DNA of 64,000 nt. Origin: a virus. Position numbers and translations under genes: made by a program. Positions 15,459 through 64,000 of the stretch are shown in pieces. The notes under the pieces were generated by a model. That model saw only the letters and a list, made by a program, of their open reading frames with translations, made no database searches and had not been told where the DNA came from. The DNA lies in IMG/VR virus record IMGVR_UViG_3300027969_000001, positions 64,001-128,000 of that record. The stretch is one strand, 5' to 3'. Position 1 is the first letter of the stretch, and every line of letters begins with the position of its first letter.

Positions 15459-18400
15459 CTATAATCCCATCGTCTTTAGTTCTTCTACGGTTAATCCAAG
15501 GAACTCTGAAAGCATATCGTAGTGCTCTGCTTTGAGCCTTCTTAGTCCTTCGTTTGCTGGAGCCGTAGCGTAAGCTATTGCTTCCGCTATGTATTCCGCC
15601 CTGTTGGTTGCAGCGTAATCGCTTATTTGCTTAGCTAGTGATGAATCGTATTCTGAAAGCATGTTTACCATTGAGGAAAGTTCGTCTTCAATTTCGGAAC
15701 TACTTCTTCCGGCTTTTAGTTCGTCTTTTGCCCACGAGGTGGCGGCTTTTAGTTCTTTATAGATTCCATCTAAATCTTCTGATTCACGTTTGAATGCAGC
15801 TTTATTTGTCTTTTTAGCCATAGCGTGGATTGCGTGTCCAAGTTCGTGACGTATTACGTACTCTCCGGTAAGGTTTGTCCCCGGAATATAGTCCTTAAGG
15901 ACTTTGTCTGGGAATGCTATGAAGCCATAAGACGGTGTGTATACCCCGCCTCCGGCGTACCAGTTAGTTGGCTCTAGGTCGGATTCAAAAATAAACCCTT
16001 GCTTGAGCCCAAAGTCAGTTAGAAGCATTGGTGGTATGTCAAATCTTCCGAGCATGTTTCTCAATGATGGTGAATTGCTTAGTGTCAATTCAACTTTTTT
16101 CTGAAGTTCTTTTTGTTTATCCCAATTAATTTCTAGTTCTTCAATGAGTTTATTAATTTTTCTAATACTCTTGTTTGAATTCTTTGTGTGCGGAGAACTT
16201 CTCAATATTGATGCAAGCTCTTCAGGGGAAGACGGAACGGCTCTGATTGATAATTCATTTGCAGAATAAGCAACATATTCAGCGTCGCTGCGAGGTTTTG
16301 CTCCTGGACGGCCTTTGCGAAGCCTCCTATTTGACCTGCCGCTACTTAATCGCGTGGATTCAGGAGAGGAATCTCCTGCCTGTTCTCCTCCAGCATTGAG
16401 TATGTAATCTTCATCGAATGCGCCAGGGGTACCGCCGTAGTCTATGTCGTATTCAGAAACCGCAGGTATGCCTAGACGTCTTGATAGCGCTTGAAGTTTT
16501 TCTCCTTCGTCTGGGTTTTCTCCGGTGTAATCATCCCTTACTATGATGTAGGCAATATCGTCTAGCGAAATTCCGCCCTCGCCGGGATGTACCTGTGCTT
16601 CGACTGGATAGTCGAAAGTGTCTTTTTCTCCAGCGTTTCTCAACATCATCATGTTTATATCAGGAGAGTTCATTGCTGACGTTGTTCCCATTAAGCTGAG
16701 GGAGTCTGATTCTGTTACGGTTGTTCTGTCTTCATTTCCTGGCTTGAGGACTAATAGGTAGTTGCCGTACTGCTGACCAGAACCAGCCACTTCTTCAGTT
16801 ACTCCACCATATGCAGCCATTCCATAGATTGGTCTGAATTCTGGAGCCATATCTGGTGGATATCCAAACAGTGTTACTTCCGCTTGCTGTCTAGCTTGAG
16901 GATTGTAATGTCCATTGCTTCTGCCTGTTTCAAACTGACTAAGAAGTTTTTTGTTTTTTATAAGACCGCTTATTGCTTCTTTGTCTACAGCAACGACTAC
17001 GCGATTATAATCCATTGGCCCTGGCTGGAAATAATCTCCACCCATGCCAACGAGTTCTTTTGCGTATTTATCGTATTCGCTTACCAAGTCTTCAACGGTA
17101 CCTCTAACACGCATGTCCGCGGACATTATTATTTTTTTACGTTCATTTTCTAGATACTTAGCGCGTGTTATGTGTATCCCGGCACGAAGAACCAAGCCTT
17201 TGGCAATGGTTTCAGCATCCCATTCCATCATTTGAGGGTCTCTAGATAAAACTATTCCTGTTATTTTGTCAATTGCTGGACCGATGCGTTCACTGAATGG
17301 AGACCTCTCTCTAATACGTGCCCATGGCCCCTTTGAAGTTTCTAGTAGGAATGGGTTAATTTCTTCTCCGTCGAATGCTTTTTTAAAACGAGGGTCATCG
17401 AGTACACCATCAATTAGTTCACCAATAACAGCACCTATTTTAGGGTCTATAGTTTCGTCCAGAAGCCAAGATACTGGTCTTCCTTCTTTTCTTGCGATAG
17501 CAATATCTTCGGTTGGTTCCTTCAGTGACCTTGGATAGGCAGCAACAAGGGCTTTGGCGTGTTCGTTACTTACGTGCTCGGTTAGTCCGGACGAAAGCTT
17601 TTTTCCAGCGTTTTTCCCAACCGATTCTCTTTGTCCGTCAAGAACTTCCGGAGTGGCGGAAGCGGCAAAAGCTCTGCCATCCGGGGATAATGCATCAGAG
17701 TGTTGAAGGTTCTGTTCAGGCCATGTATCCCTGTGAAGGCGCATCATTTCTGATGCTATTCCCGTACGTCTGCGGGTTCTGGCTACGCCAGTCCTTAGGA
17801 TTTCGCTGTGGTCATCCTCGTTCCACTTTATGGTCGTCATCAGTCCTATCGAATTCTTGGAGTCTTCCATTCGCTTTAGGGCATCTAAGACGTTTACTTC
17901 TTCAATAGGAACTGGCCCTTTTTTATCAGTCATCGGATTGAAACCAAGTTTTGTCCAGCTTTCGGAAAGTTTTTGTCTAGCGTCATTTACGCTTCCAGTA
18001 TCATAAGCAGTTATGGTTCCACCAGCATCAAGAACTACCCAGTAGCTAGTTTCGTTTCCATCTTTAGATGTGTGTTCAATATGTCTTGCTGAAACTATGC
18101 CGTAGTAGTTTGCATTCATAACGCTCTCTACTACTTTTTTCTTACCGGACGACATGCGCAGTTCTTGATTTAATTCATCAGGCTGCAGTACTTCTGTTCC
18201 GGAAATGGAGCGAGGTTTTACCAGTGTTGATAAGTCCACTTTCTTGTTGCCCTGTTTATAGTTTTTAATAGCTCTAACAATAAGTGCGGGTGTTATCGCA
18301 TACAGTCTATTCCTGCCTTCATCAAGAGTAACGGAAGAGAATCCAACAAAAGGTCTCTGCATGCCGATTATTTGTTTTTCATAACCAGGTCCAAGCTTGT

Positions 18401-21400
18401 TGGTCCAGTGTTTGTGTTGTTCTCCACCAATAATCCACTGCGTTCCACGCATGGCGTACTGCCATCTTTGCATCATTACACTGTCATGTACTTTTAAGTC
18501 TTTGCCTCTGTTCTCGAAATCCCAATCTCTCGAAAGATTTTCTGCTATGTGTTTAGGGATTATTCGATGCGCGTATCTACCAAAATACCCCCCGGCCAAT
18601 TCTTCTCCAGTCATGAGTGCGCTCAAGAACTGATTGTCCGCTTCCTCGAGGGCCTTGATGACAGACTTTACATCGACTTGTTCATTCTCAAGTCCTGCAA
18701 TTCTTTTATGTGCTTCCGATATGAAGTGAGCAACATCCCACCCTCTAGCAGCGAGGTCTATTACTTGGTCTGGACTATTCTGACGAAATTCTTGAGATAG
18801 GTTACTAGACAACAATCCAAGTGAATTTCTGTTGTAGTTCCCAGCGTGTATTGTCCCATCAGTAGAAGCTGATTCAATAAACTTTTTTAATTCTTCAATT
18901 TGTTTTTCTATTTGATTATTTCTAGCTTTTACATCAGCGACGTTGATATTGTTAAGAGCTTTTGTGTCAGCAGAAGCAACATTAAAACCGTCAGAACCAA
19001 CAGTTTTTTTAGGGTTAAGGACTCCGCCATCAAGTTCTGATGAGCCTTGATGTATTAAGAATTTTTCTCCATCTGAAGCGCCATTACCGAATAGTTCCCA
19101 GTATTTATCTCTATCATTTTGTTTGAGTTCTAATATCTCTCGTGTTTCTTTAAGTAGGTCATCGTACTCTTCTGGAGTTATATCTTCTAGGTCAAGTACG
19201 TTTTGTTCAATTCTTATCTTCTTGCTATCATGTTTATATTGCAGCAAGGCTACTTCTTCTTTTAAAAGTCTTGACTTTTCATTAATATCGTCTTCAAATT
19301 TCTTAATCCAGTTTTTAACAAAAGAATCACGTTCGGGTTCCTTGTCGCTTCCCGGATATCTAGTCCACGACTCATGTCTTGCAGTAAACGCATCTTCAGC
19401 TCGAGTCACTATGTCTGCTTTTAGTAAGTTTTTTGCTTGAGCTTCCGATGAATGTATGGTCGGAGCATTCATGTTTTTATCTGAAGCAACCACAACGTCA
19501 AAGTCTCCGCCAAGCCAGTCGCCAGTTTTATTATAATGCTCCAAGGCCTGAGTAAATCTTCTCATATAGGAAGATTGTTCGTCTAGTTTTTCTTTCTCGT
19601 AAGAAGTATTAAATCGGGTATCAGCTTTGTACGGAGTTGGTTTTTCCAATACGTCTGTTTCTCCAGATGAAAGCTTCTTGGCCTCGATTTGTTTAGCCAT
19701 TGAGTCTCTATCAACGTCAACTAATTTTGTAGCAAGTGACTCTCCGTCTGCGCTGTATCGTGTTGCTTCATCAACTCTGAAAACCATCGCCTGCATCGGT
19801 CGGCCTAGTATTACTGTTTCATCTTCTTCTAGACACCCAAAGCCAGTAAATGGAGTAGAAAAAATATCTTTAATTGGCACAAAAGCCTTTATGACGTATC
19901 CACTTTGGTCATTACCTGGTCTTCTACTGAACGACCTGGCTGTAGCTTCATTGATTGACCAAGACGAAAGTGGCCTCATACGTACTTCACGTATATCCAT
20001 ATCGCCTATGGCTATTGGTTCTCCAAACGCATTTTCACCAGCAGTAATTCCTCTGTATACAGCAAGATGTGTTATCCCTCTGTCTTCGAAATACTGCTGC
20101 GTTGCTTCATGAGATGTTTGCAGGAATTCTCCAACAAATTTTCTTTGCATTTCGCTCAGGACTGGAGCACCATCGAAGTCTTCCATAATCTGTCCTGGGC
20201 CAGGGGATGCAACAACTCTGTCCATCCTATATTGATTTCCTCGGTCCCAACCAACAGCACCGTCTACGGAGAACAGTTCTCTGGCTACGTTCTGCATTGA
20301 TAACGCAACGTCGTTGGAGTCGTTTGCTGATATAGCCCATGTATGAACCAATCCTGATATTAACGCCTGCTTCAGAACCCCTTGCCCTTCTGGGGTATTG
20401 GCGTCAAACTCTACAAGACCACGGCTTTTCAACAATTCTTCAGGACTAGGTATTACTTTTTTAATATTTTGTATAGTTAGTTCTTTTAATACTTCTAGGT
20501 CTTTTGCGTCGTCCGGCGTATTTTTGTCAATTTTGGCGACCATCAATTCAGACAAGTCTTTGTAATCAGTACCTTTCTTTATTCCGTAGCCTTTTTGCAG
20601 TATCTGTTCCCAGTCATCCGGACTATTCATAAGAGAATATGAATCTATTGATATTAAGGTTCCGTCTTTTAGCCTGTATATGCCCAGGTAGTCATTTTCG
20701 GGATTGCCTTCTCTTCTTTGACGTGTTTCCCTATTCCCCCACATGTCAAAGTAATACAACTGAGTTTTTATTGCAGTTATATGGTCTCCGGACCAGCGGC
20801 GCATTTCAGTTGGACCTATGGAGCCTATTGAATAATCATCCATGGTTTTTTCATACATGTCCCACATGCTTGATTTATCAAAAAGCTCACCAGCAGTCAG
20901 TGATTCAAGTTTAGGAATAAAAGATTCGTTCCATATTTTGAGAACGCGCTGTTCTACACTGAAATCTATTCCCGAAGCTACCGAGCCTTTTTTGGGATTG
21001 TAAAAAAACTTACTTCCATCGCGCACTCCTTCGAGTGTTCTGTTAAGGATGAGTGATACGTCTCTAAAATTCTCGTCATCAGCAAAACCAACTCCGCTTC
21101 CAGGCATTGAAGTCTGAAACATTTTTACAAAATCTTGAGGAGTAAAATCCATAGATTCTGCTATTTTTTTAGAAATCTCTCTTTTAATTTTTGGAGCAGC
21201 AAGACTAGAATCAATATCGTATGTTCCAGGAATAGAAACCGCATCGTCAATAAACATCTGCAAGACGTCTTTTTCGTCAGCAGGTTTTGTTGGCGAGTAA
21301 GGCTTACGAGTTGTCGGTATTGGAACAAACTTGGCAATCTGTGCTTTTTTCCACTGCGTATCTCTTGATTGAGGAATAGAAGTTTCCGTTATTCTAGAAC

Positions 21401-24400
21401 GGCGCAAACCTTCTATTTCCGAAAGAGCACTTTCTAGTCTTCCGCGACGTTCGTCTCTTACTCCAGGGGAACGCCCAGATGAAAGAATCCGACCAGCCCT
21501 GTCGCCATCACGCCATGGCTGATAGGTGTCGTTTCCGCCAAGCAAGGTTGTTACAGCTTTCTTCAAGGAAGGACTAATCATTTCATTTTGTATTTTTTCG
21601 TCTGGATGCAGTACGGCGACAATGCCCTCAGCCATGGTTTCTGCCATGTTGACGTTTCCGTATGAAGTGAGCAAACGAGGAACGTCTGGAGTTTCAGAAA
21701 ACGGAACATCGTTTTCAAACATTGTTATTCTGTCTTGGTCATATGTAAATTTATTAAATTCAGAAGCAACAGCAAGTGCACGAGCATAGTTTGTGTTGCC
21801 CTTGTCTTTGCTGCCGTATCTTTGACGTGTATGAATTGTTGTCTTTGGTCCGCCCTCAGAGTCAGCTATGGCCTTGAAGTGCAGCCAGTGACCCCATTCG
21901 TGAAGCAGCGTTCCTGCAAGGGAGTTTTCTATTGACTTCTGTCCTTTTACTGGGGACTGACCATTCCATCGAAGAGTGCTTTTGGTTACTGACGGTATTG
22001 AGTCATCCAATGCTTCAAGAAACACCTCTTTGTTGAGATAGACGGTGTCCATGTTTGGACTCATTCTTCCTCTTGCCCTAACCGGCTTACCGTCGTTGCG
22101 TTGCTTTGCAATCGCTGCAAATTTCTCGCGCACTTCTGGTATTGCTTCATAGGCTGCTATGCCTTCTGGGTCCATGAAGGAGAAAGAAGGAGCTCCGTGG
22201 TTTTCAAAAGCCCACTTCATTTGTGGGTTATCTTCAATGGATTGTGCCAGGAGTTCTTGCATGGCTTTTACGTTGTCTGGTGAGAAGTCCGGGGTATCCC
22301 AAGGGTTTTTTTGATGAAAATCATCATAGTATTTCTGAAATTTTAATCTAGTAGCAGGGTCTACAACATCAGCGCCAGCGTAGTCGTCGAGCCACATTTG
22401 AAAATGTTCTTCACGATTTGAAGGAACCAAAACCTTAGCCATTTGTTCAGAGCTGAGACCTCTTAGCCATGTATTTGTAGTCTTTCTTATCTCGCCGCCA
22501 AGCACGCTCTTGTCGCCGTACTTGTAATCCTTGGCTCTGTGTTCTCTTAGAAGTTCGCGCTCGTTGCGACCAATTTCTATTATTGGTCTTTGGGGGGAAT
22601 CTGGTCTAATTTGTATAGACGGACGTTCCTGCCCTGAAGCAAGTGAGGGTCTGCTGCTCTTTCCCAAAATATCGTGCGCAAGAGCTAATTCAATATCTTC
22701 TTCGTTGGCTTCATAAATTGGCTTGCTTCCAGAAGACAGTCGTCCACTAGTAGATGCTGTATCAAGCTTCTTAATAACTGAATTAAAATCACCAGCATAT
22801 ATACGCGTTTCGGAGTCAGATACGCCTTCAATATCGAATACGGTTCTTGGTCGATTACGGTAGCCCATTGTTTCGTTCATATTTAGGTCGGACTCGTCAA
22901 GTCTGCCAACCCTGAGCATTCGTTCGGCGGAGTACATCATGTAATGAAGATGCTTAACGACCATTTTTTCTTGAGGCGTTAGAGGTGAGTCTGGGTGGTC
23001 CGCAAGGGACATCATGGCAAGGTCGTTTGCCCATTCTCCATGGCGGTCAAAAGCTCTACCGGTTCCGAGATGTCCGAATAGGTCATGGGTGTCTTGAAGT
23101 GCCTTGCCATAGAGTCCCATATTGAATTTATGCGGGTCAGTTATTCCACCTATGTAGCCACGAAGATATGTATCCGTGCTGTGGCTGATTCTTGAACCTG
23201 GAAGAAAAAGCTCCTCGTCACCCATTAGTTCGCCCGCACGGCGCGTAAGTTCCCTAACAAACTTGCTATGTTTTTTCCACGCTTCAAGATACGGTTCCGG
23301 CAATGTATCTTGAGTTAATGCTGGCAAACCAATACTGTCGCTCCTGATGACAAATCCTTTTGGAGCCAACATTTCCAACAGGGGGAATCTTTCCCTCGCC
23401 TCGTCGTTTTCAAATTCTAAAGTAGAAGCGTCGTTTTTGTATATTTTTCTTGCAATAATGTTTCCGTCGGAATCTTTCCATACGGAACCATTGAAAACAA
23501 CCGTATCTTTCATTGCTTCATCAAGTATTGAAATAACGTCATCACGCTTAGGCAACTCGACGGTACGCCAGTCTCGTTTGTCCGGTATCTGTTCTGCCAA
23601 TTGAGGTATCGGGTCAGCGGAAACAAACGGAATTCCGTCTGAAGAAATATCAATCGATATTGATTCAAGTAGCTGTTTTCCGGTTTCGGAAAACGCATTG
23701 TCCACTTCAACGTCAAGTAGTGTTTTCCCAGCAATTTCTTTGGTCAAGCCGGGAATAGCATCTTCAATAGAATATTTCTGTTGTTTTGTTAGTTCTTTTC
23801 CTGTCGTTTCTTCTATTTTTTTAATTATTCTCTCGGCAACTTTTTTACCCGTTAAAGACTCTCTAGTTAGTCCTATGTCGGCAGCTTCTTGCTGGGTTAC
23901 TTCTGTGGGTTCATTAAATGCTTCAACTACATTTGCGCCAGAAGAGAGTCTTGTGCTTTCCCCTTCGTTGCGATTTGAGTATATTTTTTCATCAGAAAAT
24001 CTTTCGTCTTTCTTTATCTCGTCTATAGCCCTATACATAGCATCAAGAAGAGACATTCCTTCTGCTTTGTATATTTCTCGCAAGCGGGCCATCTCTTCCG
24101 ATTTTTGACGACTCAATTCTGCGTCAAAATCCATAAGAACATAAGACAGTCCGCTACCGTCTGGATTATGTTCAAGTTTGAATGCTCTGTTTTTAAGCTT
24201 GTTTGATTCTTCGAGGCCTTCTAAGACTTTTTTTACTTTATTAACAGCCTTTGTCTGGCCTTCAGTACCCTTTCCTATTTTTCCAATCAATGCGTCTAGG
24301 GAGTTATATGCAAGTTCGTCGTCGTATACTTCTATTACAGCTTTTTTGGTTTTCTCGCCGTTTTTGTAAACTGGGCTATACAGGTACCCATATCGTTTTA

Positions 24401-27400
24401 TGTGCTCTAGCTTTAGTTCTTCTTTATAGGCTTCATCTTCTTTGAAACGTTTTCTTCTGACATTTAGTATTTCAAGTGCTTTTGCCCAAGTATCAACATC
24501 TGGTCCGAATGCTTCATTTAGTGCTCTAATTTGTGCTTCTTTGTCTATTTGTCCAAAACCATCTTCGGCAGGCTCAAGTCTGTTGTATCGCTTGTATTTT
24601 TCGTAAAGTTCCCAATACTTGAATTTCTCCTGCTCAGGGTTGGCAAATTCGAGTGTTTGGTCGAAACTGTCATCATGATTTCCACCTCTGGCTACGGTAA
24701 AACGAGTTGATTCTCTGCCAGAAGAAAGTCTTGTGCTTCCCTCTTCTTTCTGGGCTGCAACAAAAGACTCTTTGTCTGATTCAAATTTTTTTACATCGGC
24801 GTCAAACTTTTCGCGCTCAAGTCTTAGTTTTTCATCGCGGCGCTTTCTGCTAAGTACAGAAGTGTCCCAGTTGTTTTCTATAGCACCATCAATTATCTTT
24901 TGCATTACCTGACTGGTTGCGAAGGCATCAGCGTCTGCGTTGTGATGTCCGTCGCCAAGTTCCACGCCGAGGTATTCGGTAATGGCGGCAAGGCTGCTGG
25001 ATGGTTTGGTTGTCCCGTCTCTACTACTTACGATATGTGGGCCATCTGGGCTATCTTCGCTCCATACCGGAAGGGTAAGAGAACTTATTTCGCGAGTATC
25101 TAAATAACCGCGTGGTGTCCAATCGATACCGCTTTCACGTAAAGCATCATCAAGAACGTTCTTGTCGAAAGTTGCGTTCTGAACGCCGATGATTGCGTCT
25201 GGGCCAATAAACTCAGCAACCTGTCTATGCGCTTCAGCCATGGGCATTTGCGTGGCAAGCCATTCATTGGTAATCGGATTACCGTCTGCGTCTTTAAGAT
25301 TTGCTAAAGACCATTCTCCTAGTGGTTCTTCTGGGTTCATAAACAGATTTAATCTGCCTATTTCTTCCCCATTTTTCATGCGAACTAGGCCAATTTGTGT
25401 TGGTTTTCCGTTGGTTGTGGCTTTACCAAACTCGTCAAAATTCAGGCCGGTTGTCTCATAGTCGAGAAATACAATTTCGGCATCGTTGTATTTCTTCTTG
25501 AACTCTTCCCATGAATTAGAGTCGCCAAAGTATGAATCTGCTTCACCAAGGAAAGCTCCAAGCGTTGGTTCGCGTGGATATCGTGGAGCCTTGCCGCTAG
25601 ATAGGCGGTCTCCCATCTGTTCCTCAAGCTGGTTAAATGCTTGAGAATCGTCAACTTCAGGAGCCCGTGAGGTTTTAACTGACAGAACCCTGGCAAGTTC
25701 TTCCTTGAGCACATCTCTCTTCCAAACATCTTTATCTTCTTCGCTCTTGCCACTAGGACCACGGTATTCAAATATAACAGGGAGTTTTTCGGACTTGACC
25801 AGAACTCTTAGCCATGCTTCATATGGCGTAGTTGATTTATCTGGGATTATTTCTTCTTTAGACAACCCCTTATCCCCGAAGTTTTTGTCAAACCACACAT
25901 CTGTCATTGCTGGGTTAAACATCTCAACATCGTCAGTTTTAAATACTCCGCCCCTAATGTTAGGAACTACCTCTATGCCATACTCTCGCATTAGTTCATC
26001 ACGTGATTGCGCCATATCAATCAGGAGACTCACATTGCTTTCGTTATTCTCGTTGTAGTCCTTGCTAAGTTCTCCCAACTCTTTTCTAAACTCTTTTGGT
26101 GTAGCAATTATTGCTTGAACTTCTTCAGGCTTGAATCTTCCAAGAACTAATGCTTCTTTGTAACTTGCTGATATGCCATTGTCGGAACTAGCCTCAAATG
26201 CTCCGGATGGTGTTGGGTAAGTGTCGCCAGTCTTGTAGTCATAAAGTATGCCAAGTGGACTAAAACTACTAAGAAACACTCCATCTTCACCCAGTGAACT
26301 GAGTTGAAGAGGCGCATTGTCTTTCATTGACATATCAACTGTGTCTGCATCAAAAACCCTAGTGCGCTCTGCAACTTCTGGTCGTAGCACAAAATGTGAA
26401 TCGCCGTACTTTTGTGTTCTGTTCTGCGAAGCCTCTAGTGCTGCTCCTGCAGGACCTTCGTACATAAGTTTAATGTCGTCTCCGTATATTTTTTTAAACT
26501 TTTCTTCTCGTGCTAATGCTGTTTTTGAAGTAGTAACATAGCCCGATGATGGTCTAAGTTCTCTTACTTCTGGAGGGTCTTCCACCCCTTCTTCAAACGG
26601 TAAACCTAATAGATTGCCTTCAACCTTTCGTCTGGCACTGGTAGTAATAGCATCGCCTATTAGGTTCATAGACTCAATATCAGCTGCTTCTCTTTCTTCT
26701 TTGTCATGTTGAGTGAGTATGGTGCGATTGCCCTTAATAAACGAGGCAATGCTTCTTGTCCTTACGAGCACCCGTGTGTCGATAGATTTACCATACGCTT
26801 CAGACGCCTTCCTCATGTCTGCATTCAACTGTTCTGGGGTGGCTGTTTTTAGATAAGTTTTAAACTCGTCAATTTTTGCAACCATTTCAGTATCGCCCCT
26901 AGCGATATGTATCTGTCTTGATATTTCTAATGCTACGCTCGGAGGAATAGGGTCTCCTTTTGCCCATACTCCAGACTCACGAAGTCTTGCTTGTATGGGG
27001 AAAAACGCTGCCTCGGCATCCCTGCCGGTCATCTCCGAAGTAAAAAACTTTCCTTCTGCTACTACTTCGTTTATGTAATCAATAGCCTCTTGCGGAAGAA
27101 TTGTATCTTTTTTAAAGTAATAGTCAATTTGACGCTTGGCGGACTCTGCTGTTTCTTTTATTCTTGTATCGAGTTTTTCTTTGCTTACTTTTTCTTCAAA
27201 GTTCGTGCCGTAACCGAGTCGTTCTTTCAAGGCTCTTAGTTTCCCAAATATTTCCTGCGTATAAGCTGCGGATATATCGGCATTATTTATTTCGGTACCA
27301 CTAGAAAGTTTTTTGGTTACTTCTGGGTCGTAGCCCCATTCAAGCCAAGAGTCGCCGGCTGTATAAATATCCTTAGCCTTGACTCGCTTCTTTATGATTT

Positions 27401-31017: not shown

Positions 31018-31035
31018 TTAGCAGGCCTGTCGTGG

Positions 31036-31365: not shown

Positions 31366-31382
31366 GTAGTTAACGAAGAATA

Positions 31383-31793: not shown

Positions 31794-31822
31794 TTAACCA
31801 CAATACATCAATAAGTCAATGC

Positions 31823-32161: not shown

Positions 32162-32250
32162 GGGGAATACTCTAATACACCGGTATGTCGTCATGGCGGA
32201 ACCAATAACTCTTTACGGCCTGAAGTGCATGCATTGCTTAGTATCTAGGG

Positions 32251-32883: not shown

Positions 32884-32897
32884 ATATACACTTAATT

Positions 32898-35249: not shown

Positions 35250-35253
35250 TGGC

Positions 35254-49300: not shown

Positions 49301-52300
49301 ATTCTGATAGCCACAGAGTCGTGTCCAGTAGTTCGACCATTCGTCTGCGGCATGTCTTCACGAGCTATACCTATGTGTCCAGAGCAAAGAAGGTTATTCT
49401 CTGGGTTATAAAGCATACATAGGTCTGCCTGATGTTTTTCTTTGTATTGACGCTTTGCCTCGGCAATCATTTCAGGACTTTTTAAATCTTCGTCAGAGTT
49501 AATTTTTTCAAATTCTGATTTAAATTTAAGCCATTCGGGGTGTTCGTTTTCAATTTGATTGGCTGCTTCTTGCTTAACAAGTTCTTCAAATTGTTTTTGA
49601 GCTTGCTCAGTAAGTCTTACATCTTCATGTTTTACCATCACATGATGACCTGCCATCATTAGCGCAAGAGCGTCCTCGACTTTATCTACTTCATATAGGT
49701 GTGAAGATTTTTCACTTACAGACTTTTGACCAGACCTTCTGACGGTTCCACCAAAAAACGATGACAGCTCTTCTTCGGACATGGTTTCAATATCTTTGCC
49801 ATTATCGGCTATTTTTTTAAAAGTTTCCAAAGCAGATTCAGCAATAGCTTTTTCTTTTTTCCCTCTTTCGGCTACCTGTTCAGCGGAGTCGGAGACACCA
49901 GAACTGAGTCTCCCAGCTCTTGCTGCTGGGTCCATACCGGCAAGTCTTTCAACTCTTCTACTACCACTAGAAACCTGAGGACCTACGCTGGATGCCCGCA
50001 TGGTGCCGTCGGCAAGGAACTTTTCTAGGTCAGGTTCACGCATTCTCACCCTGACTCTTCTGTCAAATCCGTTATGCATCTGAAAGGCAGCGGTTTCCAG
50101 GTCTGAAATTATTTGCTCGTGAGACTGGGTCGAAAGTTTTTTAACAACAGCACTATCAAGTGATGAAATAGATAGCGCTTCGTGCTCGCCTGAACCAGAA
50201 CCGGATATCACCTTACGAAGTTCTACCGAACGGTCTTTTATTCTTCCGTTTCTTTGTGTAGTTCTTGCTTCCCGGGTCATTGCTGGTCCGAATACGTCGG
50301 AGTGGCCAGAAGAAAGTTTTCTAGCAACTTCCGACGCAGGACGGCCTCCTCTTTCTGCTGAAGTTTTACTTATAGATTCTAAATATGTTGGAAGCTCTGT
50401 TGGGGCTTCGCCAAATACTCCACCCTTATCGACTACGTCAGAAAGAACTGTCCTGCTTGTTTCTTTAACAGAATCCGCATCGTCAGAGCGTGAGCCAGGA
50501 AGAGGGGAATCGTGTCTGGTTACTGCGTAGTTGTCTGCAAAGGTTTTAAGCTTTCTTGAAGCACCTTTACGCCATGCAGCATCATCAGTGCCCGATGCTA
50601 TCGATGTAGCCATCGAATCAAGGACTTCAACGGTTCCTTTTTGCTCGGCAATTTCTATGCGAATAGTTCCGTCAGCTTCTCTTCCAACAATTCTAATTTT
50701 TCCTGGAGGCATAACGACAGTTTGGTCTCCACTATCTCCAATATTGGGAAATATTCCCCTGTCTTTTGCTTTAGCAACAATAACTACGCGCTGTTTTACT
50801 TTTCCTGTTTCTTCATTTATCTTGGTAGCTTCATCAATAACAGTTTTTTTCTGACCTTTAGAAATCACTCGGCCACTTAATAGTCCGTCGTTTTCTATCT
50901 CCCTACCTATGGAAACTCCCGTGAAAATAGTAGGGTCAAATTCCATTACTGTTTCTATATCTAGCTGCTCTCCAAGTGAGGAAACTTCCATTGCCTCAAG
51001 TGTGGGAACTAGTATGTTTTTGATTTGGTCATCGAAAGAAGCTTCACTACTAGATTTATCATCTATTGGAAGTGCAAGACGTTTTAATCGAGCATTTTTT
51101 CTGTTTGCAGCCCTACCTACGGATATTTGCTTAGATGGCTCTAGCGCACCAGCTAACCCATCAGTATCGAATGTGCCCATCTCTTTAACGGCATCAGATT
51201 GTTCTTTTGTTATTTTTCTACGGAGCCGTGCTCTTTGCTTTTTACCCATATCTCGAGCTTCGGTAGCTGATGCTACTTTCCGTGATGCTCGTGGCTTAGG
51301 CGAAAGTACAGTTTCAACTTTCCCATCAAGCTCCATCAGGATTTGCGCAGTGGTTCTCTTATCGCCGGCGTCTTTTATAGATTTTGCATACTGGTTTCTG
51401 AGAAGGTCAAGTTCCTCTGCTTTATCCATGAGGTCTTTGTCTAGTGCTGCAATATCGACAACAGTTAATTCACCATCTGGAACGGTTTCTACGTCGGCTG
51501 GAACATAGGAAGCAATTGAATTTTCTATATCTTTAATCAGTAATGAATGGTCAGCTATCTTGCGAACTAATTCTTTTTCTGACATCGAAGAAGCAAGTCC
51601 CTTTAGGTCATCAAGAGCTGCGGCCCTAGAAGCGGCCTCTATCTCTTCTGGAGCATAAAGACCGTGAGCATCTCTAACTTCTTTTACTCTCTCTTCAAAT
51701 CTAGCCAACTCAGTTTTTGAACCAACGCCATGTTCTTTTCGCCATATTTTTTTGGCGTCTTCATACATTTTGTCGTAAAATTCAAATTCTTTTTGTGCAG
51801 AATCAAAAGCGGGAGAAGTTATGTCATCTATAGAATCCATTTTTGCTGAAGCATTATCACGCTGTGCTGCAACTAGTGCTGCGTTGTTTATCATGTCTTC
51901 TTCTGGGAGCTCCTTAAAAGCTTCACTGAAAGACTTAAGGGCTGCGCGTCGTTCTTCTGAGGTTCTTTCTCCAACTGAAATCAACTCTTCCGCCATGTCT
52001 TCCGCGGGCATATCCGGAACAGCGTCTCCAGATACGTCTGGAATAAAATCTCCACCAGCATCACCGCTTGGAATAATTGAAGAAACTATGGCTCTATCTT
52101 CAGCTGCCGCCCTCATGGAGACATTGTCCATCCATTCAAGTGCTGCATCAATATCTTCGCCGTAAATTATTCCCTGTTCACGAAGCGCCCAAAGCTCTGC
52201 GCATACTTCTAGGGCCCAGTGCTCTCCGCCTTTTCTGTACACATCCCCTGGGTAGCTACCAGCAAGAGCTGATACAACTTCAATTCTGCTTAATGCTCCA

Positions 52301-56117: not shown

Positions 56118-59100
56118 CTAAACAGCTGTTGAATCAGAAATTACTCTCGTTCCATTTTTGTTTTTACCGTAAAGAGTTTTTCCATCTTTTTCTATACGCT
56201 CTCGCGCTGTACGAAGTTGTTCCGCACTGAAAATGTCATCTATGGAATAATTTGTTCCAAAAACTTCATTGAATCTATTTACAACACCCTGAAGCTCATT
56301 TGTTGAATATCGAGGGCTGTCGCCCTTCTTCGGAGAAAAAACTGGACCACGTGTAGCAGCCAGTTTAGGCAGCTCAGTATGTATGTCTTTTTTACCGATT
56401 ATTGAATGAACAGTCTCTCTATTGGCTTTTGACTTTTCCACGCCACTCTTTTGAATGAATTCATTTAGGGCTTCGTACACAGCATGCTTGGAACGACTCA
56501 GCTCGGAATCAAGCTGTTGACCAGCTTTCCCTTCCGTCCAAATAGAAGAAGCATCAGGTATTACTCCCTTGCGAATCATTTCATCGATATAAGCGACGGG
56601 AACGCCTTTCTTTTCCCATTCAGCAGCATCACGCCTACTTCCAAGACCAACATTCTGACTACCAAAACTTTCAGCAATCACTTGACGGAGTTTTTCGTGC
56701 CAGTTATCGTTTTTGCTAATACCGAGGTGCTCCAGAAGGGGCTCTATTTTGAAATCCTGTCTAGATGTCTTGTCGGTTGCTATCTGCTCAGCAGTGACTG
56801 TTCCTGATGGAGTTAAGGATGCCCCAGACATTCCTTCCAGCATTAAATTATGTTCTGCTTCCGAGTCGCCATCAGTAGCACTATTCTTCTGGAATCGGCC
56901 CATTGCCTGAAACTTGGCAACAGGACTAACTTCCCCAAGAGAAGCGTATTCATCTGGCGTTATTGATTGTTGTTCTTCTTGGTCAAACCAGTGAGGGAAT
57001 GCGTCTTTACCAAAAGTCTCAACAATGAATCGGTCTCGCATGCTGGCTCGGCCTATATTCTCGGCAAATACTTCTTCAGCGTTCCACTTTTTCTGCTTTG
57101 CTTCCGCCGAATCTACTGGGGCAAAAAGCCTCCATGCTCCGAATTCTTTTTGCTTGCCGGTTTCGGCCAACATGTACCTGACTGCGTCATGGTTAATAGC
57201 TGCGCCATCTTTTTCCAACAACGCAGCGTCTCTTCTGCCAAGACCAAGCATGCTTGCTAACTCGGCATTGGTGATTGGACGAGTCTGTGAATGGAAAGAC
57301 TCAGACAGTGAACCACTATCGGTATAATCCCTAGTCCACTCTGTCGGAACACGAATGGCATCCTTGAGCTTGGATACTGGGAGCATCCATGTCTCAGCTG
57401 AAGGCTCTTGATTGCCACCATTTTGAGATATGTTTCCAATCTTAATTGATGGGCGCTCGCGCATTCTTTCAGAAATAGCATTAAGCGCATTATTCAGTGC
57501 TTTTTGTTTCTGGGCAGGGTCTGTTGAGTCGGAGTCAATATCAAGTGCTATGCCATTATCTCTAAAGCCCTTCCATATGCTCATTGATGTTTTTGTGATT
57601 GCTCTATTAGTGCCACTATTTTTTGTAACGCTAGAGAACCCAGCAAGCTCTATGGGGTGCGCTAAACGTCGGGTGTCGCCTTCTGCACCAGACATGTCCT
57701 CGCCGGCATTACCGACCGTACGAATACGCCTGGAGAGACGTCCACCAGCATTTGATGAAGCTGCACCACTGCTTAGTTTGGCAACGCTTCCTGAATCGCT
57801 TTCAGGGAAGTCATTAATCCAGTCTAGTGAACCAAGTTCAAGCTGTTCTTCTGCTCTTGTAACGGCAACATAAGAAAGTCGGAGTTCCTGCTCGTCAGGC
57901 ATAATCCATGTTTTCTTCTCTTTGTCCCACTTTGGTTTTCTAAAGTCTGACCAAATTTTTACTCTTGGAGACTCAAGACCCTTAGAGGTATGTGCTGTTT
58001 GAATATGCACGTAGTCGTCGCGATTTTCTGGCAGTTTTTTCTTGTCGGTAATAATCTTGCTGAGTGCTTCACGCAAGTCTGCAACAGAGTTCTCTGCAAG
58101 CAGCTTATTAAGCATGTTTAATCTGTTGTTATCCCCGTCCTCTATGGCTTTTTTGAATTCTTCCATAGTAGTAATTCCGTCAAGGTCTTGACTTGGAGGT
58201 GGAGGAGTCTTGACTTCTTTGCCAAATTCGTTGATGTAGAAAGGGTTGCCTTTTGCTTTGTTTTCCATCCAGTCAATGTTTTGGATAAAATTTTCTAAGT
58301 CTTTCTTAAAGTTCTTACTTCCATATACAGCGCCGCCCTTGCTGAAAACATCCATAGTTGCCGCAATGGCTCCACCGTTTGCACGAGTAAGAATCATTGT
58401 TGGTTTATCTATAGTTGTAATTACTCCATCTACAGGATTACCTGACTTGTCTGCTTTCTTTCCGGTCATGCGTTCTTTTGCACCAAGAAGCGATAGGAAC
58501 TGGTTTCCTACTCCAGCAATTACTTTTCCAAATCTATAAGAATCTGTAATTGGCATGTCATATACGGATTTTGCATCATCTAAAGTTTTTCCATCAGCCC
58601 CTCGCCAGGCGTTGATGGCCTGATTGGTATCGCCAATGTAAATTTTTTGAATATCGCCAGAGTTTGCCAGCATCTTTGCAAACACAGGGTTCATATCCTG
58701 TGCCTCGTCAACCATGGCTATATTGGCTCCGGCTATTTTCCCAATGTCTGGGTCGGTTAGTGCCCATATTTTTGTTAAATGAGCGTTGTTCGTTGGCAAC
58801 ATTCCCTTTTTGCCATCACGTGCAGTATTAATGTCTTCCCACATTTTCTTGGCATATCCGACCAACTCGGGAAGTATTTTTTCATCTTTCACTGCTAATG
58901 AACCATTGAAGGCACCGGTAAAGTGCTGAGGGCCAACTTCCTTATCATCACTGATTACGAAAGCATCAATTGCCTTCTGTACTCTCTTGTAAACATCTAT
59001 GGCACTGAGTTCATCTGCTTCAGAAACCATACCCTTTATACCGAGATATGCGGCTCTATCTTTGTAAGACTTGATTGGGTCTATCCAGTTGACAGCATCA

Positions 59101-62100
59101 GCCTCGTAGCTTTTATCAGTCAAGTTTCTATTAATTGCCTTCATGGCATTGTAGGAAAGACTGTCCATAGTTCTAATCTGGAAGAAATCTGGAGAGATGC
59201 CTTCTTTGGCTATTCTCTTTGTTACGTCGTCTTTGGCGTTAACGTTAAATACTAAATAAGCAATTCTTGCTTCCGGTTCTGATTTCTGCAGTCTCTTAGC
59301 AAAGTTAATAACTGTTGTTGTTTTACCCGTTGCCGCTAAAGCTCTAACCTTTACGTCTGCTCCAGTCATCATTGCGTCTATAGCAACATCTTGTTCAGGG
59401 TTAGGTTTTCTGTTGGCAGGGAGGTCTGGGTAGTCGTATTTCTCAACGTCTTTTATGTCAATTATTTTTCTAGGTTTTCTAGAGAATGGAGCACTTGGTG
59501 TACTTGGCGCACCTGGGGCATTCGGGGTGGAAGGCTTGGATGGAGTAGCGTCACCATTTGGCCATACGGTTTTGCCGTTTTCAACGGTAGGCCAGCCATA
59601 AACCATGTTACGAAGCGTGTCCCACTGTGACTGACTAAGGACTCCATTTTTACTCTTATGCTGAGAAAGAACACTAGGTAAGAAACTTTCTTCAAAACCC
59701 TTTTTGGGAGTTTTTGCTGCGGCAGCTTCTATTAGTTTTTTCTGCTCTTCTGGATTTGGCATGTCTCCTGGTGGATTTTTGCCAGAAGACAGGCTTTGCG
59801 GAGCAGTTACTGTTGGTGTAAATGTTGATGCTTTAGGAGCTCCACCACCGTACGGATTCCAGTGTCCGTTTGGCCTTTGTTGTTCTGGTCCGAGTTTTGT
59901 TGGACCATTGGCAATGCCGTCAATACCGGTGTTTCTGGCTGGGTCGAATATCCAATCGAGGCCTGGACCGGGGTCAAAACCTAATTTTGCACGAGTAAGT
60001 GCAACATACAGAAGATGTGCTTCTTCTCTTGGCAACCTATTGTTAACCTCACCAGCATCTTTCTGTGCTTGAGTGAGTGCAATCCCCATGTCACGAGCAT
60101 TGGACCTTCCCCAGTCATCACCCATCATGACGTAGTCGGCTTCAAGGCCTTTTACCCCGTGTCCGGTAATTACTTCAATATCAACGCCTTCAGTGTCGTT
60201 TACGTGGTCTGTGAGGTATCTTCCAAGTTCTGAAACAATAGAAGCACTTTCTTCTAGGGTGTCACCGGAGACAACCCACCCATCGCCAGGCGGGCGCTGC
60301 GCCTTCCCGTCTAAAGCAACACTCTTCTCATGGTAGGATATTTTCCCTTCCATTTTGTGGTCTTTAATCCATTTTTGAAGTGCAAGTCTGCTTGGCCCGA
60401 GCGCAGTAGCTTTTGTGGCTGAGCCGTTCGCGGCCGTGTATGACTTTACTCCGTCAACTCCGTTACCGGTTATGAGAATACTCTTCCCGTCCCATTTGCC
60501 TGATGCCGTAACGCCAGGACCAAGCCACGAACCAGAGTCGGTAAATAATGGTCTCCAGTAAACCCTATTAATATCTGCGTCACCATTAAGAGATGCTGGA
60601 ATAATTATGTTTGGCTCAAGGCCGCCCATTATCCACGGGCCATTAGCACCAGCACCAGATTTCTTGGGATTGAGTGCTCCCTGTATTTTTACAGCTTCAA
60701 TATCAATTTGTTCAAATGGGTCTATGTCTACCCTTTCTTGAACTGGAATAATTTTTCTCTTAGAATAGTCAAATTCACCTTTTACTGAGTCCCACATGCC
60801 CTCTAAGGCTTCTACGTAATCCATGGCGCTCATGTTGGCTTGCATTATCGCCCCGGTTTGTGGGTCTCTATATGTAGCCCGTGTTCCGTCTGGGTTCATT
60901 TTAGGCAAATCAAGAAGCCTCATCAACGAGAGCGCGTCAGCATTAGCTTTACCGTCGATAGAAAGTATTCTCTTGACGTCTTGAATACTTGCAGCGTCCA
61001 TCACTTTTCCACCAAGAAGCTTTGACTCCACTGGTCTTGCAAGTTTTTTGCCAGAGTTAATCCAATTCAGAACCTTCATTGCGGCAAGCATTTTAGAGTG
61101 TCTTTCCTCCGGCATGCCAAGCGTCTTACCAAGTCGCGTGCTTATTTCTATACCTTGAGAAATCATTCCCGCATTGGTCCTGAATATAACCATGTTTTTG
61201 CCAGGACGGTCAAATTTGTAGTCTCTAAGTATTTCTCCGTCAGCCTGAGCAGCAAGAGCCTGCATGGCATCGGTTAATAATTTGTCTCTATCTTTTTCAT
61301 TAAGTGAGGGAAGCGCGGAAAGACTTACAATGTTTTCATCCAGACGATTGTTTCTTTTTTGTATGTCGACCCATCGAGCGTCGTACTTCTTGGCAAGTTT
61401 TTGAAATTTTTTAGTAAGTTCATCTTTGGATAGTCCAGCAATACTGAAGTCGGCTTCGACTACACCAGCAGCTCTACCAAACAATTGGTAATCGGAAGCT
61501 TCTGGGTCTACGCCATCGTTTCTGTCCTCGATATTCAGCATGTTAAGAATCGAGTTACCTAAGTATGCTTGTAATCTTCCGTATCTAAAAGAGTCACGAA
61601 GGGTTAGTTCAAATGTTGGTTTTACTTGAGCAAAAGTATCTGATGAACCTCTAAACCCAAAGATTGACTGACGTGGGTCACCAACCATCATTATGCTGAC
61701 GCCTTTTTCGGCATTGTCGGCAATTACTTGCTGAACTACCTGGTTAGTGTCTTGTGCCTCGTCGAACATGAACAGGCTCAACGGTTTGTCTTTTGTTCCA
61801 AACTGGCGGTACCACGTTGCACCTGTCTTGTTGTGTGTAACAATGCCTGTCTTGCCTTTGACGGCTCTTGTTCCGGATGGGGTGGCTTTTGGAAAACCCT
61901 GCTGGTCCCTGCTGGCGTGACCAATCAAACCTGGGTCTGTTGATAGGTCAGGCTTGGTTAATGCCCACATTTTTACTTGATGGTCAAAAGTTGGAAGAAC
62001 GTTTGAATTATCGTCCGTAATGTCTTTCCACATCTGTTCCAACTGCTTAACCCAAGCATCTGGAACAGGCTGGGTCCACACGCGGTCTACTACAGGACTT

Positions 62101-64000
62101 AGGGTGGTGCTGCCTCCATTTAGAACCATGTTCTGTATGTCAAAAGCAGAATGTTCAAAGTGTTTTGCACTTATGGTCTCGTCGCCGCTTATGCAGAACC
62201 TGCTAAGAGCATTGTTGAGGATTGCTCCGTATTGAAGTGCGCTTATTTGCGTGGCATCAAACATCTGACTACCCAAGGGAAGTGCGCCACCATTGTTGCT
62301 TCCGCCATATTTGATTTCGTCTAATTTGTATTTTTCGACAACAGCTTTAGAGCCCTCTATTTTGTCAAAAGCGGTATACCCAAGCGTTCTGTACCCAACA
62401 GACTTAACACCTACTAAATCCACAGTAGTTCCATCAAATCTTGTGATGGTTTTTTTAACGGTTGCCTGTTTATGGGTTTTACCCCAGTACGAATTGCCTC
62501 CGCCACTTGCACCAATTGAAACTTTTTCGGCAGTTTTTGGGCCGAACATTTTATTTCCGGTGCCAAACTTGAGTGACCAATACGCCAATTGATTAATTGT
62601 TGAAGAACCAGTATTTTCTGGCATTCTTCCGTTTGCTTCTTGCGCGTTTTTTCTGGCAAAAGTAATGTAATAAACTCCTGCTTCTGGGTCTTCTAGTTGA
62701 ACAGCTTTAGAGACTGCTTCCAGGGTTGTCGTTTTGCCAGTTCCGGCACCCGCTCTTACTGCAGCTATCCCACCCGGTTGCTCCAAGAAATGAACTCCGG
62801 TGTCAATGATTGCAACTTGTTCTTCAGTTGGCGTGTAGTTGAGGCCTAGGCGCTCGCGAGCGCTTTCCGCGTCGCTTCTCTTGACTATTCTCTTATCGTC
62901 AAACTTGCTTACAATCGGCTTCAGGTCAGCGCCGCTGCTTAGCTTACGATAAGACTGGTCGTATCTATTGCCGTCTTTGTCTTTAATTAAGAATCCAGGG
63001 ATTCCTGCAAGGTCTTCTCCAAAGAGTCCTGATGACATTGCACCAACAACGCCTCTTCTCTTTCCTCCTGCAGGAACTCTAAATGGAGCCTGTGGAGAAA
63101 GTGGTTTTTTCTCGCCTTTCTTTGGTGGGCCGAGCTTGACTGTAACGTTTCTGGCAGTGTTTGTTCCAGGAACCGTGAAGGTAAAGTCTTGACGACCTTT
63201 TCTTTCGTCGTCTCTTTTACCAGCAAGTCTACGAAGCGTTGGCGACTTGTTCATCATGTAGTCGATGGCCTGCTGTGCCTGTGTTAACGCATCTTGAAGT
63301 GCGTTTGGGTTATCGCGAATGGCTTGCATCCAGCCGGAAACGTACTGAGCGTGGTCTTCTCTGACTGTCGGCTCAAGGCCAAGGATTCCCATGGCGAAAG
63401 CGCTACCAATTTCAGCAATTAGTTCTTCAAATGCGTACCTAGATTTAGATTCGGCTCCAGCTCCTCGCATTCTTCCTGTTTGGTCTCTATTGAGGCGAGA
63501 TGGGTGGCCGGTCCAGTGGGTTGTTTCGTGAAGCAGTGTTGAGTAGAAACCTATTGGGTCCTTAAAAGAAGAGAACGTGGGCATTGTAATAGAGTCATTG
63601 GAAGGTGAATAAAATGCTCGGCCTTGTTTTGCCTCTTTCCAATCCGGTCCTATTTCTGAAATAACGTCTTCAATGTCTTTCATTCTCTTCGCTGCGTCAA
63701 GTTCGTCATGCGAGATTGGTTTATAGAACTCCTCCGGCAAGCCTTTTACTTCAGCAACGTTAATAACTTCAGTAATGTGAAACGTTCCTGTTGGGCGACC
63801 GTTGTATAAAGTTGGTGCAATTATCTGTACGAGCTTATTCTCATATCCCGGTTCTAGTTCTCCGCCAGCTTTCTTCCATTGAGCCACCCCAGCCCAACGT
63901 GGAATCTCGTACCCACGATGCGATGCAACCTGCATGAGAAGGAATTGGTTTGTTCCTTCATATGTTCTTTTGGTATTTGGATTAGTAGCAAAAAACATTG
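56118..64000 (-). CDS. giant polyvalent protein (N-terminus outside window): ArdC-like domain + zincin, two UvrD/Rep-like SF1 helicases, unknown C-terminal module
   Basis: Y.GTN..LL...W....QW...GG; AFYSPS.D.I.MP...YST.LHETTHWTGH..RL.R...YAFEEL.AE; AGAGTGKT/DEAQD/GDPRQSI/YVALTRA; ALAATGKT/DEAQD/GDTNQAI/YVAVTRA; frame open to the edge. Confidence 0.9.
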   Translation of the reverse strand, partial: MFFATNPNTKRTYEGTNQFLLMQVASHRGYEIPRWAGVAQWKKAGGELEPGYENKLVQIIAPTLYNGRPTGTFHITEVINVAEVKGLPEEFYKPISHDELDAAKRMKDIEDVISEIGPDWKEAKQGRAFYSPSNDSITMPTFSSFKDPIGFYSTLLHETTHWTGHPSRLNRDQTGRMRGAGAESKSRYAFEELIAEIGSAFAMGILGLEPTVREDHAQYVSGWMQAIRDNPNALQDALTQAQQAIDYMMNKSPTLRRLAGKRDDERKGRQDFTFTVPGTNTARNVTVKLGPPKKGEKKPLSPQAPFRVPAGGKRRGVVGAMSSGLFGEDLAGIPGFLIKDKDGNRYDQSYRKLSSGADLKPIVSKFDDKRIVKRSDAESARERLGLNYTPTEEQVAIIDTGVHFLEQPGGIAAVRAGAGTGKTTTLEAVSKAVQLEDPEAGVYYITFARKNAQEANGRMPENTGSSTINQLAYWSLKFGTGNKMFGPKTAEKVSIGASGGGNSYWGKTHKQATVKKTITRFDGTTVDLVGVKSVGYRTLGYTAFDKIEGSKAVVEKYKLDEIKYGGSNNGGALPLGSQMFDATQISALQYGAILNNALSRFCISGDETISAKHFEHSAFDIQNMVLNGGSTTLSPVVDRVWTQPVPDAWVKQLEQMWKDITDDNSNVLPTFDHQVKMWALTKPDLSTDPGLIGHASRDQQGFPKATPSGTRAVKGKTGIVTHNKTGATWYRQFGTKDKPLSLFMFDEAQDTNQVVQQVIADNAEKGVSIMMVGDPRQSIFGFRGSSDTFAQVKPTFELTLRDSFRYGRLQAYLGNSILNMLNIEDRNDGVDPEASDYQLFGRAAGVVEADFSIAGLSKDELTKKFQKLAKKYDARWVDIQKRNNRLDENIVSLSALPSLNEKDRDKLLTDAMQALAAQADGEILRDYKFDRPGKNMVIFRTNAGMISQGIEISTRLGKTLGMPEERHSKMLAAMKVLNWINSGKKLARPVESKLLGGKVMDAASIQDVKRILSIDGKANADALSLMRLLDLPKMNPDGTRATYRDPQTGAIMQANMSAMDYVEALEGMWDSVKGEFDYSKRKIIPVQERVDIDPFEQIDIEAVKIQGALNPKKSGAGANGPWIMGGLEPNIIIPASLNGDADINRVYWRPLFTDSGSWLGPGVTASGKWDGKSILITGNGVDGVKSYTAANGSATKATALGPSRLALQKWIKDHKMEGKISYHEKSVALDGKAQRPPGDGWVVSGDTLEESASIVSELGRYLTDHVNDTEGVDIEVITGHGVKGLEADYVMMGDDWGRSNARDMGIALTQAQKDAGEVNNRLPREEAHLLYVALTRAKLGFDPGPGLDWIFDPARNTGIDGIANGPTKLGPEQQRPNGHWNPYGGGAPKASTFTPTVTAPQSLSSGKNPPGDMPNPEEQKKLIEAAAAKTPKKGFEESFLPSVLSQHKSKNGVLSQSQWDTLRNMVYGWPTVENGKTVWPNGDATPSKPSTPNAPGAPSTPSAPFSRKPRKIIDIKDVEKYDYPDLPANRKPNPEQDVAIDAMMTGADVKVRALAATGKTTTVINFAKRLQKSEPEARIAYLVFNVNAKDDVTKRIAKEGISPDFFQIRTMDSLSYNAMKAINRNLTDKSYEADAVNWIDPIKSYKDRAAYLGIKGMVSEADELSAIDVYKRVQKAIDAFVISDDKEVGPQHFTGAFNGSLAVKDEKILPELVGYAKKMWEDINTARDGKKGMLPTNNAHLTKIWALTDPDIGKIAGANIAMVDEAQDMNPVFAKMLANSGDIQKIYIGDTNQAINAWRGADGKTLDDAKSVYDMPITDSYRFGKVIAGVGNQFLSLLGAKERMTGKKADKSGNPVDGVITTIDKPTMILTRANGGAIAATMDVFSKGGAVYGSKNFKKDLENFIQNIDWMENKAKGNPFYINEFGKEVKTPPPPSQDLDGITTMEEFKKAIEDGDNNRLNMLNKLLAENSVADLREALSKIITDKKKLPENRDDYVHIQTAHTSKGLESPRVKIWSDFRKPKWDKEKKTWIMPDEQELRLSYVAVTRAEEQLELGSLDWINDFPESDSGSVAKLSSGAASSNAGGRLSRRIRTVGNAGEDMSGAEGDTRRLAHPIELAGFSSVTKNSGTNRAITKTSMSIWKGFRDNGIALDIDSDSTDPAQKQKALNNALNAISERMRERPSIKIGNISQNGGNQEPSAETWMLPVSKLKDAIRVPTEWTRDYTDSGSLSESFHSQTRPITNAELASMLGLGRRDAALLEKDGAAINHDAVRYMLAETGKQKEFGAWRLFAPVDSAEAKQKKWNAEEVFAENIGRASMRDRFIVETFGKDAFPHWFDQEEQQSITPDEYASLGEVSPVAKFQAMGRFQKNSATDGDSEAEHNLMLEGMSGASLTPSGTVTAEQIATDKTSRQDFKIEPLLEHLGISKNDNWHEKLRQVIAESFGSQNVGLGSRRDAAEWEKKGVPVAYIDEMIRKGVIPDASSIWTEGKAGQQLDSELSRSKHAVYEALNEFIQKSGVEKSKANRETVHSIIGKKDIHTELPKLAATRGPVFSPKKGDSPRYSTNELQGVVNRFNEVFGTNYSIDDIFSAEQLRTARERIEKDGKTLYGKNKNGTRVISDSTAV

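Follow-up and report, generated by a model that had tools for sequence, protein, structure and literature searches.

A lineage-specific peptide motif punctuates giant proteins of a freshwater phage family and may mark processing sites of cargo polyproteins

In RNA-virus polyproteins, one chain goes together with one motif and one viral protease. For the polyvalent proteins of phages and conjugative elements, processing by zincin domains has been proposed since 2017, with the sites left unnamed (Iyer et al., 2017; PMC5512222); according to the same work, N4 vRNAP and ArdC are accompanied by MPTases yet travel uncut. The head proteases gp245 of SPN3US (A-X-E) and gp21 of T4 provide a system in which one phage protease recognizes one short motif in several virion substrates, and their cuts remove N-terminal propeptides (PMC10052503). 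In crAss-like phages, virion proteins are fused in a virion RNA polymerase polyprotein with presumed cleavage and a zincin candidate; this polyprotein has three fixed components, no repeated motif has been reported for it, and there is no cassette shuffling (10.1101/2020.03.07.982082).

Here we describe three giant phage proteins, A, B, and C, which resemble each of these systems in part. They are encoded in a window of 64,000 nucleotides, bases 64001-128000 of a 158.7-kb phage contig, and the setting is freshwater metagenomes, the best-matching of which may be its origin; no RNA data set was listed among those containing it. With the polyvalent proteins (PMC5512222) they share the giant multidomain build and the ArdC-N, MPTase, helicase, GNAT, ART-like, nuclease, and assemblin domains: unrelated effector-type domains (DEDDh, DUF3626, GNAT, zincins, and UvrD) are joined around ArdC-N/MPTase hubs, and the content is variable. 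However, a linker motif and cleavage are undescribed there, whereas candidate sites can be given here; the assemblin domain, always C-terminal in polyvalent proteins, is N-terminal; a protein other than the ArdC-linked MPTase is the likely reader of the motif; and the code extends over the whole genome. As in viral polyproteins, a short motif stands at junctions in flexible linkers, and the phage encodes proteases with intact catalytic residues. In contrast to RNA-virus polyproteins, several genes share the code, the content is an accessory library that varies, and the cuts are predicted. Whereas the substrates of head-protease systems are confined to the head and cut at N-terminal propeptides, the motif described here separates internal cassettes, coexists with a prohead-protease code, and is carried by the tape measure as well (12/12 genomes). 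The zincins of A and B have the fold and the HExxH-Tyr-Glu set of the gluzincins LF (catalytic domain) and Pro-Pro endopeptidases (PPEP), at identities of 9-16%; they differ from them in lacking toxin delivery domains and in their probable setting, a phage virion, and their substrates are putative. No published description of the motif or of the phage family was found in the literature searched, mostly without subscription journals.

Table 1. Features of the three giant proteins and of the head operon, in window positions; the arrow marks a predicted cut.
Feature	Position	Strand	Remarks
Giant A, 4250 aa	15459..28211	-	packaging element and ~11 cassettes
Giant A N-terminal element	27888..28211	-	homologous to giant C aa ~530-615
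EQK↓A site	28131..28142	-	probable prohead-protease site; second, separate code
MSSG, A aa 109	27876..27887	-	
LSSG, A aa 302	27297..27308	-	breakpoint vs relative L134
LSSG, A aa 870	25593..25604	-	breakpoint vs L134
DEDDh exonuclease cassette core	24810..25499	-	PF00929, phrog_192
LSSG, A aa 1162	24717..24728	-	
LSSG, A aa 1422	23937..23948	-	
LSSG, A aa 1825	22728..22739	-	
LASG, A aa 1857	22632..22643	-	homologs have LSSG; breakpoint vs L134
Zincin cassette M7	21486..22631	-	HEWGH, conserved Tyr and Glu; LF/PPEP-like fold
LSSG, A aa 2243	21474..21485	-	pLDDT <50
ART-like domain	19722..20114	-	motif-level evidence only
LSSG, A aa 2847	19662..19673	-	
MSSG, A aa 3353	18144..18155	-	precedes GNAT cassette
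LSSG, A aa 3539	17586..17597	-	precedes DUF3626 cassette
LSSG, A aa 3955	16338..16349	-	precedes terminal zincin cassette (HELGH)
HK97-type major capsid protein	40126..41475	-	phrog_10; K/[SD] sites (K then S or D), LSSG absent
Giant B, 2645 aa	46339..54276	-	zincin within a fixed N-terminal part of 1320 aa; cassettes follow, inserted in a split DUF3626-like domain
Giant B zincin	52111..53124	-	HEISH at 52504-52518; Y675, E690, E694; LF/PPEP-like fold
LSSG, B aa 1321	50305..50316	-	
VSSG variant, B aa 1435	49963..49974	-	near LSSG position of homologs
LSSG, B aa 1457	49897..49908	-	
LSSG, B aa 2029	48181..48192	-	
FSSG, B aa 2303	47359..47370	-	
Giant C, in-window part	56118..64000	-	3369-aa ORF extending to window position 66227
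MSSG, C aa 1064	63027..63038	-	
LSSG, C aa 1096	62931..62942	-	
LSSG, C aa 2146	59781..59792	-	between helicases
LSSG, C aa 2818	57765..57776	-	

On the minus strand, the portal gene (outside the window) is followed by giant C, a 566-aa protein, giant B, five smaller genes, the gene of the HK97-type capsid protein and, later, giant A. Giant C had been taken for an ORF of more than 2626 aa; the whole ORF begins with an HK97 prohead protease and contains a fifth motif site at 64122-64133. The protease and a packaging element, both outside the window, are followed in C by ArdC-N and MPTase, two UvrD helicases, and a C-terminal module. The genome encodes a WhiB gene, and the nearest cultured relatives of the prohead protease are all actinophages, which points to an actinobacterial host.

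Several neighboring genes deserve mention. The acidic 566-aa core protein between giants C and B (window 54291-55991, minus strand) contains several ExK↓[AS] sites, shares its C-terminal domain with a maturation-protease protein of the actinophage DSL-LC01, and is a possible scaffold. Homologs of the small head-operon genes (243, 255, and 167 aa; window 41658-43143 and 45839-46342, minus strand) reach 900-2850 aa in the genomes G012-G016 through appended motif-bounded cassettes, and the small proteins are candidates for further capsid anchors. The core 727-aa protein of the head operon (window 43119-45302, minus strand) had no match in Pfam or PHROG, and by eye only, its C-terminal part resembles a HipA-like kinase fold with altered catalytic residues. 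Two adjacent HNH-like genes 3' of the ribonucleotide reductase gene (window 35254-36436, plus strand), recognized by inspection, are ordinary.

A preceding sequence-only reading had listed 21 motif sites in the three giants, each by the low base of its 12-nt motif, and all of them are present: 11 [LM]SSG and one LASG in the 4250-aa ORF, five in the 2645-aa ORF, and four in the in-window part of the third (Table 1). LSSG is the top tetramer of the giants, with 16 copies in 10,264 aa against 0.35 expected from 2000 global or 30-aa local shuffles, in which the maximum was 4-5 copies. The wider form [LMFV]SSG was observed 21 times (0.84 in shuffles), and 17 times with K/R in front of it (0.11 in shuffles). 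The motif is thus strongly enriched in the giants relative to shuffled proteins and to the rest of the proteome. In the other 163 ORFs (36,896 aa), where the sequence-only reading had noticed none, there are three copies, two of which lie in the tape measure. Throughout the family, the motif can be written as [RKSG]-[L>F>M]-[S>A]-S-G-[RAK]; its information is confined to 5-6 residues, at which conservation ends. Of the residues proposed for position 1, F and M, together with the LASG form, are enriched family-wide, whereas V is not (5 vs 2.2). The preceding K/R, noted earlier for most sites, proves in the family-wide comparison to be a habit of the lineage and no requirement. K/R-specific cleavage was accordingly rejected, the upstream K/R being dispensable among relatives.

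Regarding the modules between the motifs, DEDDh, DUF3626, ArdC, MPTase, and two UvrD helicases were confirmed (in giant C, PF18818 at 4.6e-35 for the MPTase and PF08401 at 2.4e-8 for ArdC-N), whereas GNAT is weak in the window (E 0.035) though clear in homologs, and the ART-like domain is recognized by its conserved R/S-x-S/E-x-E residues and one weak DRAT match, with no PDB sequence match for the module. The motifs had been placed mostly between domains. This agrees with the AlphaFold model of one cassette, M7, in which both flanking motifs fall in linkers with pLDDT<50, but not with giant B, where an insertion with motifs on either side divides a single DUF3626-like domain (window 46342-50316, minus strand) into collinear halves (hhalign 61% and 96.5%); at this place, about 870 aa of cassettes are inserted in all six genomes compared. 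In addition, three of the 25 motif-bounded segments are spacers of 22-32 aa, and segments shorter than 60 aa are common among relatives. The assumed two dozen effectors are therefore an overcount, because the pieces also include spacers, anchors, and the two parts of a divided domain.

More than 500 IMG/VR relatives of the protease domain were collected, and giants A, B, and C, all with the motif, are present in each of five additional near-complete genomes. It is present in 119/120 homologs of giant C (prohead protease fusions; 3-21 copies each), 119/120 homologs of giant B, and 21/21 homologs of giant A. P0133, considered as a motif-less case, was rejected as such, since it uses G-L-x-S instead. 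Single sites decay in close relatives (MASA and LSSA in P0002). The segments cut out by the motif recur as units whose number and order change among relatives, and they form dozens of families; giant A ranges from 1210 to 4250 aa. Downstream of the N-terminal element, the giants consist of cassettes of about 70-700 aa with a single motif at each junction. When the motifs were masked, 572 of the 1358 ends of alignments fell no more than 10 aa from a motif, compared to 105 expected, and three homology blocks shared with a close relative start or stop on motif codons. The expectation that related phages keep the motif while swapping modules was thus borne out, cassettes being gained, lost, and reordered at it. 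In the contigs, loose ends or piece edges at 18156, 19672, and 22644 adjoin motifs, a weak observation; no joints were seen. Such punctuation is absent from the giants of the cultured phages DSL-LC01 (3289 aa) and Gilgamesh (4624 aa). In the actinophage DSL-LC01 (L128, OQ999401, 17527-39870), the unpunctuated giant belongs to the head operon, and the head proteins repeat [VIL][TV]A[AGS]G; this phage is a possible culturable contrast to the punctuated giants. In L151, a gene seems to begin at MSSG, but the apparent start comes from a frameshift within a run of A and is no natural one, so this case was set aside as an indication of where a cut would fall.

Distant relatives possess other versions of the motif: GLASG/GLSSG, GF[SA]S[SR]T, GLAS[ST]S, GMASR, GMRSR (up to 25 copies), xSTRS, SRSxR, and GSKSTT. 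The table of versions by genome is diagonal in eight genomes, each having its own version in all giants and hardly elsewhere. Head-operon genes that are small here and giant in other genomes carry, in the latter, the version of their own genome. The same is true of the tape measure: in 12/12 genomes, a Gly-rich linker spanning aa 540-690 contains the genome's own version (chance in shuffles 0.002-0.09 per genome, the lineages not being independent), and in LSSG-type genomes there is an additional site at aa 36 (6/6). In the genome under study, the tape-measure gene is situated outside the window (G000:C1:149410-154299; L002:3411-8297) and encodes FSSG at aa 36 and LSSG at aa 576. The C-terminus of this protein resembles an HxH peptidoglycan peptidase by eye, for which Pfam gave no confirmation. 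Since the code extends to the tape measure, the motif is more than a head-cargo signal. The only residue common to all versions is Ser at position 3, and in two lineages Ser also replaces Leu/Phe/Met at position 1. The simplest account is a single reader which would act in trans on head cargo and a tail protein and change with the phage lineage.

Based on these results, we propose, with a probability of roughly 0.6, that a phage-encoded protease distinct from the prohead protease has its recognition site in the motif, and that the giants are cargo polyproteins. From their position between the portal and capsid genes and from the prohead protease fusion, we infer that they would be delivered into the host with the DNA. 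The anchor would carry the whole giant chain into the prohead, the HK97 protease would clip the K↓[AS] sites, and a zinc protease would then cut the junction motif, late enough to keep the cargo until packaged; because the tape measure would also be a substrate, this cutting would probably coincide with ejection or follow it. Crossover at the short DNA encoding the motif, combined with selection for a cuttable junction, would allow any cassette to join the cargo. A fuller version of this proposal, which we hold tentatively and regard as rather less probable than its opposite, is that of a second, ejection-stage proteolytic code apart from head maturation: one virion zincin would cut the giants and the tape measure at a lineage-private peptide, reader and sites would drift together, and the motif would double as the crossover point of cassettes. 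The tape-measure link across versions, the dispensable K/R, the case against the prohead protease, and the giant B zincin candidate are newly found here.

If cleavage occurs, the fixed zincin of giant B is the likeliest reader, with a chance that we put at about even. It is the only zincin found in all 14 genomes, with HExxH conserved in 120/120 homologs and the Tyr and two Glu in 119/120. Its model, folded from an alignment of the window and genome loci (pLDDT 78.5), gives a moderate match to the LF catalytic domain, with Z 9.7 (rmsd 4.5, 183 aligned), and matches PPEP-3 with Z 6.5. In many giant B homologs, a motif is located directly upstream of the zincin (aa ~250-280), and a cut there would release it from the anchor. 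It is the fastest-diverging core protein compared (23-53%); it diverges within the LSSG version too (41-49% identical), so that its divergence between versions is weak support for its role as reader. The predicted complex of this zincin with Zn and a 32-aa motif peptide scored 0.01 against a mark of 0.32 and carries no weight in the argument. F versus L at position 1 was tried as a covariation signal and rejected, as it varies within genomes and between near-identical zincins (P0137/P0138).

M7 is the second candidate. Its catalytic residues are intact and its likeness to LF/PPEP is moderate (Z 8.9), with no Foldseek match at E<=0.001; it occurs in every LSSG genome, but searches of G014-G016 (63-84% complete) did not turn it up. 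Two giant A homologs, L251 (G012 66590-76225) and L255 (G013 28355-37690), have three tandem M7-like zincin cassettes. The ArdC-linked MPTase was rejected as a poor candidate, being missing where motifs persist: 18 C giants without HExxH keep 5-12 motifs, and it was not found in G012/G013 (the genomes without M7 or MPTase are 63-88% complete). An HslV/proteasome-like core protein with an N-terminal threonine (G000:C1:35083-35715, plus strand), conserved in G000-G005, G012, and G013, is a minor candidate. LF cuts immediately before an aliphatic residue (PMC3153234). By analogy, the predicted cut would be x↓[LFM]-x-S, before Leu/Phe/Met, which the Ser-first versions do not fit. A cut before Leu/Phe would expose bacterial N-degron residues, a point against the cleavage reading.

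It is also conceivable, although unlikely, that the motif is read and left uncut. It could serve as a handle to which a chaperone or ejection machine docks in order to thread cargo and tape measure through the tail, or a phage enzyme could modify its serine. All versions have the Ser at position 3 alone in common, and the Ser-first versions, which strain the lethal-factor analogy, fit a modified serine. Moreover, tape measure and head cargo both travel through the tail, genome-wide versions require a phage-encoded reader whether it is a protease or not, and the core 727-aa head-operon protein diverges to a degree similar to that of the candidate zincin. However, there is one copy per junction whatever the cassette length (13 to >1000 aa), which is the pattern of a separator. 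The protease/scaffold part, which precedes the anchor, is also almost free of the motif (2/60), copies close to the C-terminus are rare (median distance 258-383 aa), and intact zincins occur in every genome.

We consider it very improbable that the fused HK97 prohead protease, the other reader suggested by the sequence-only reading, cuts the motif inside the head as L-S-S↓G, in the assemblin-type hydrophobic-x-small↓small geometry. This protease heads giant C with intact His/Ser motifs (phrog_80, 1.6e-23), the head proteases of T4-like phages and SPN3US process numerous head proteins at motifs of three residues (PMC10052503), and the repeat of the DSL-LC01 head proteins is, by inspection, a similar pattern. 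Nevertheless, its core is 79-95% identical across the versions while the motif goes from LSSG to GMRSR to GSKSTT, and the K↓[AS] sites remain unchanged; it is therefore probably not the reader. HK97-type proteases cut C-terminal to lysine, so the K↓[ASD] sites, which flank the protease domain and occur in the N-terminal region of the capsid protein, are read as prohead-protease sites. The EQK↓A of giant A occupies the same alignment column in 6/6 genomes, and K[AS] occurs at aa 19-32 in 15/16 homologs of giant A. The element shared by A (first 108 aa) and C begins at an ExK↓[AS] site in both and is the probable capsid-targeting anchor. Capsid protein and protease flanks carry K↓[ASD] without LSSG, contrary to what would be expected if LSSG were the code of the prohead protease, and the tape measure is outside the prohead. 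The motif had alternatively been suggested as a packaging signal; packaging is better explained by the N-terminal element, which is distinct from the motif and has a K↓[AS] site of its own.

Just as improbable is a DNA-level recombination scar or hotspot without peptide function. Breakpoints do fall on motif codons, one site pair shares 33 nt at 88%, there is a mild TCT bias, and codon diversity is lower among the copies in G014 (18 distinct of 38). On the other hand, the motif is always in frame and on the coding strand, and the peptide-level conservation claimed earlier is upheld, all six Leu and all six Ser codons, both TCN and AGY, being in use. The 97 copies comprise 77 distinct 12-mers against 88 expected from background codon usage (in G016, 26 distinct in 28 copies), and neither a DNA repeat family linking the motif sites nor a letter-conserved DNA repeat per junction was found; selection therefore acts mainly on the peptide. 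The motif is also kept in the tape measure, a protein without shuffling. Its DNA may serve as a crossover point in addition to the peptide role. Finally, it is hardly credible that a host protease cuts the motif, with the versions following different hosts: staphylococcal Prp, which processes capsid proteins of phage 80alpha, is a precedent and post-ejection cutting would account for the tape-measure site, but at least eight versions in one phage family imply a fast-changing reader.

Overall, for the zincin cutting proposed for phage polyvalent proteins, this phage family offers a named candidate enzyme, over 1,600 distinct candidate sites, and natural variants of at least five specificities. 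If the proposed protease reading is true, an HK97-type head would load and eject a variable arsenal via one anchor, and tape-measure processing would be tied to cargo release. The motifs would then give exact borders for dozens of effector domains of unknown kind, and the family would provide a set of orthogonal sequence-specific proteases.
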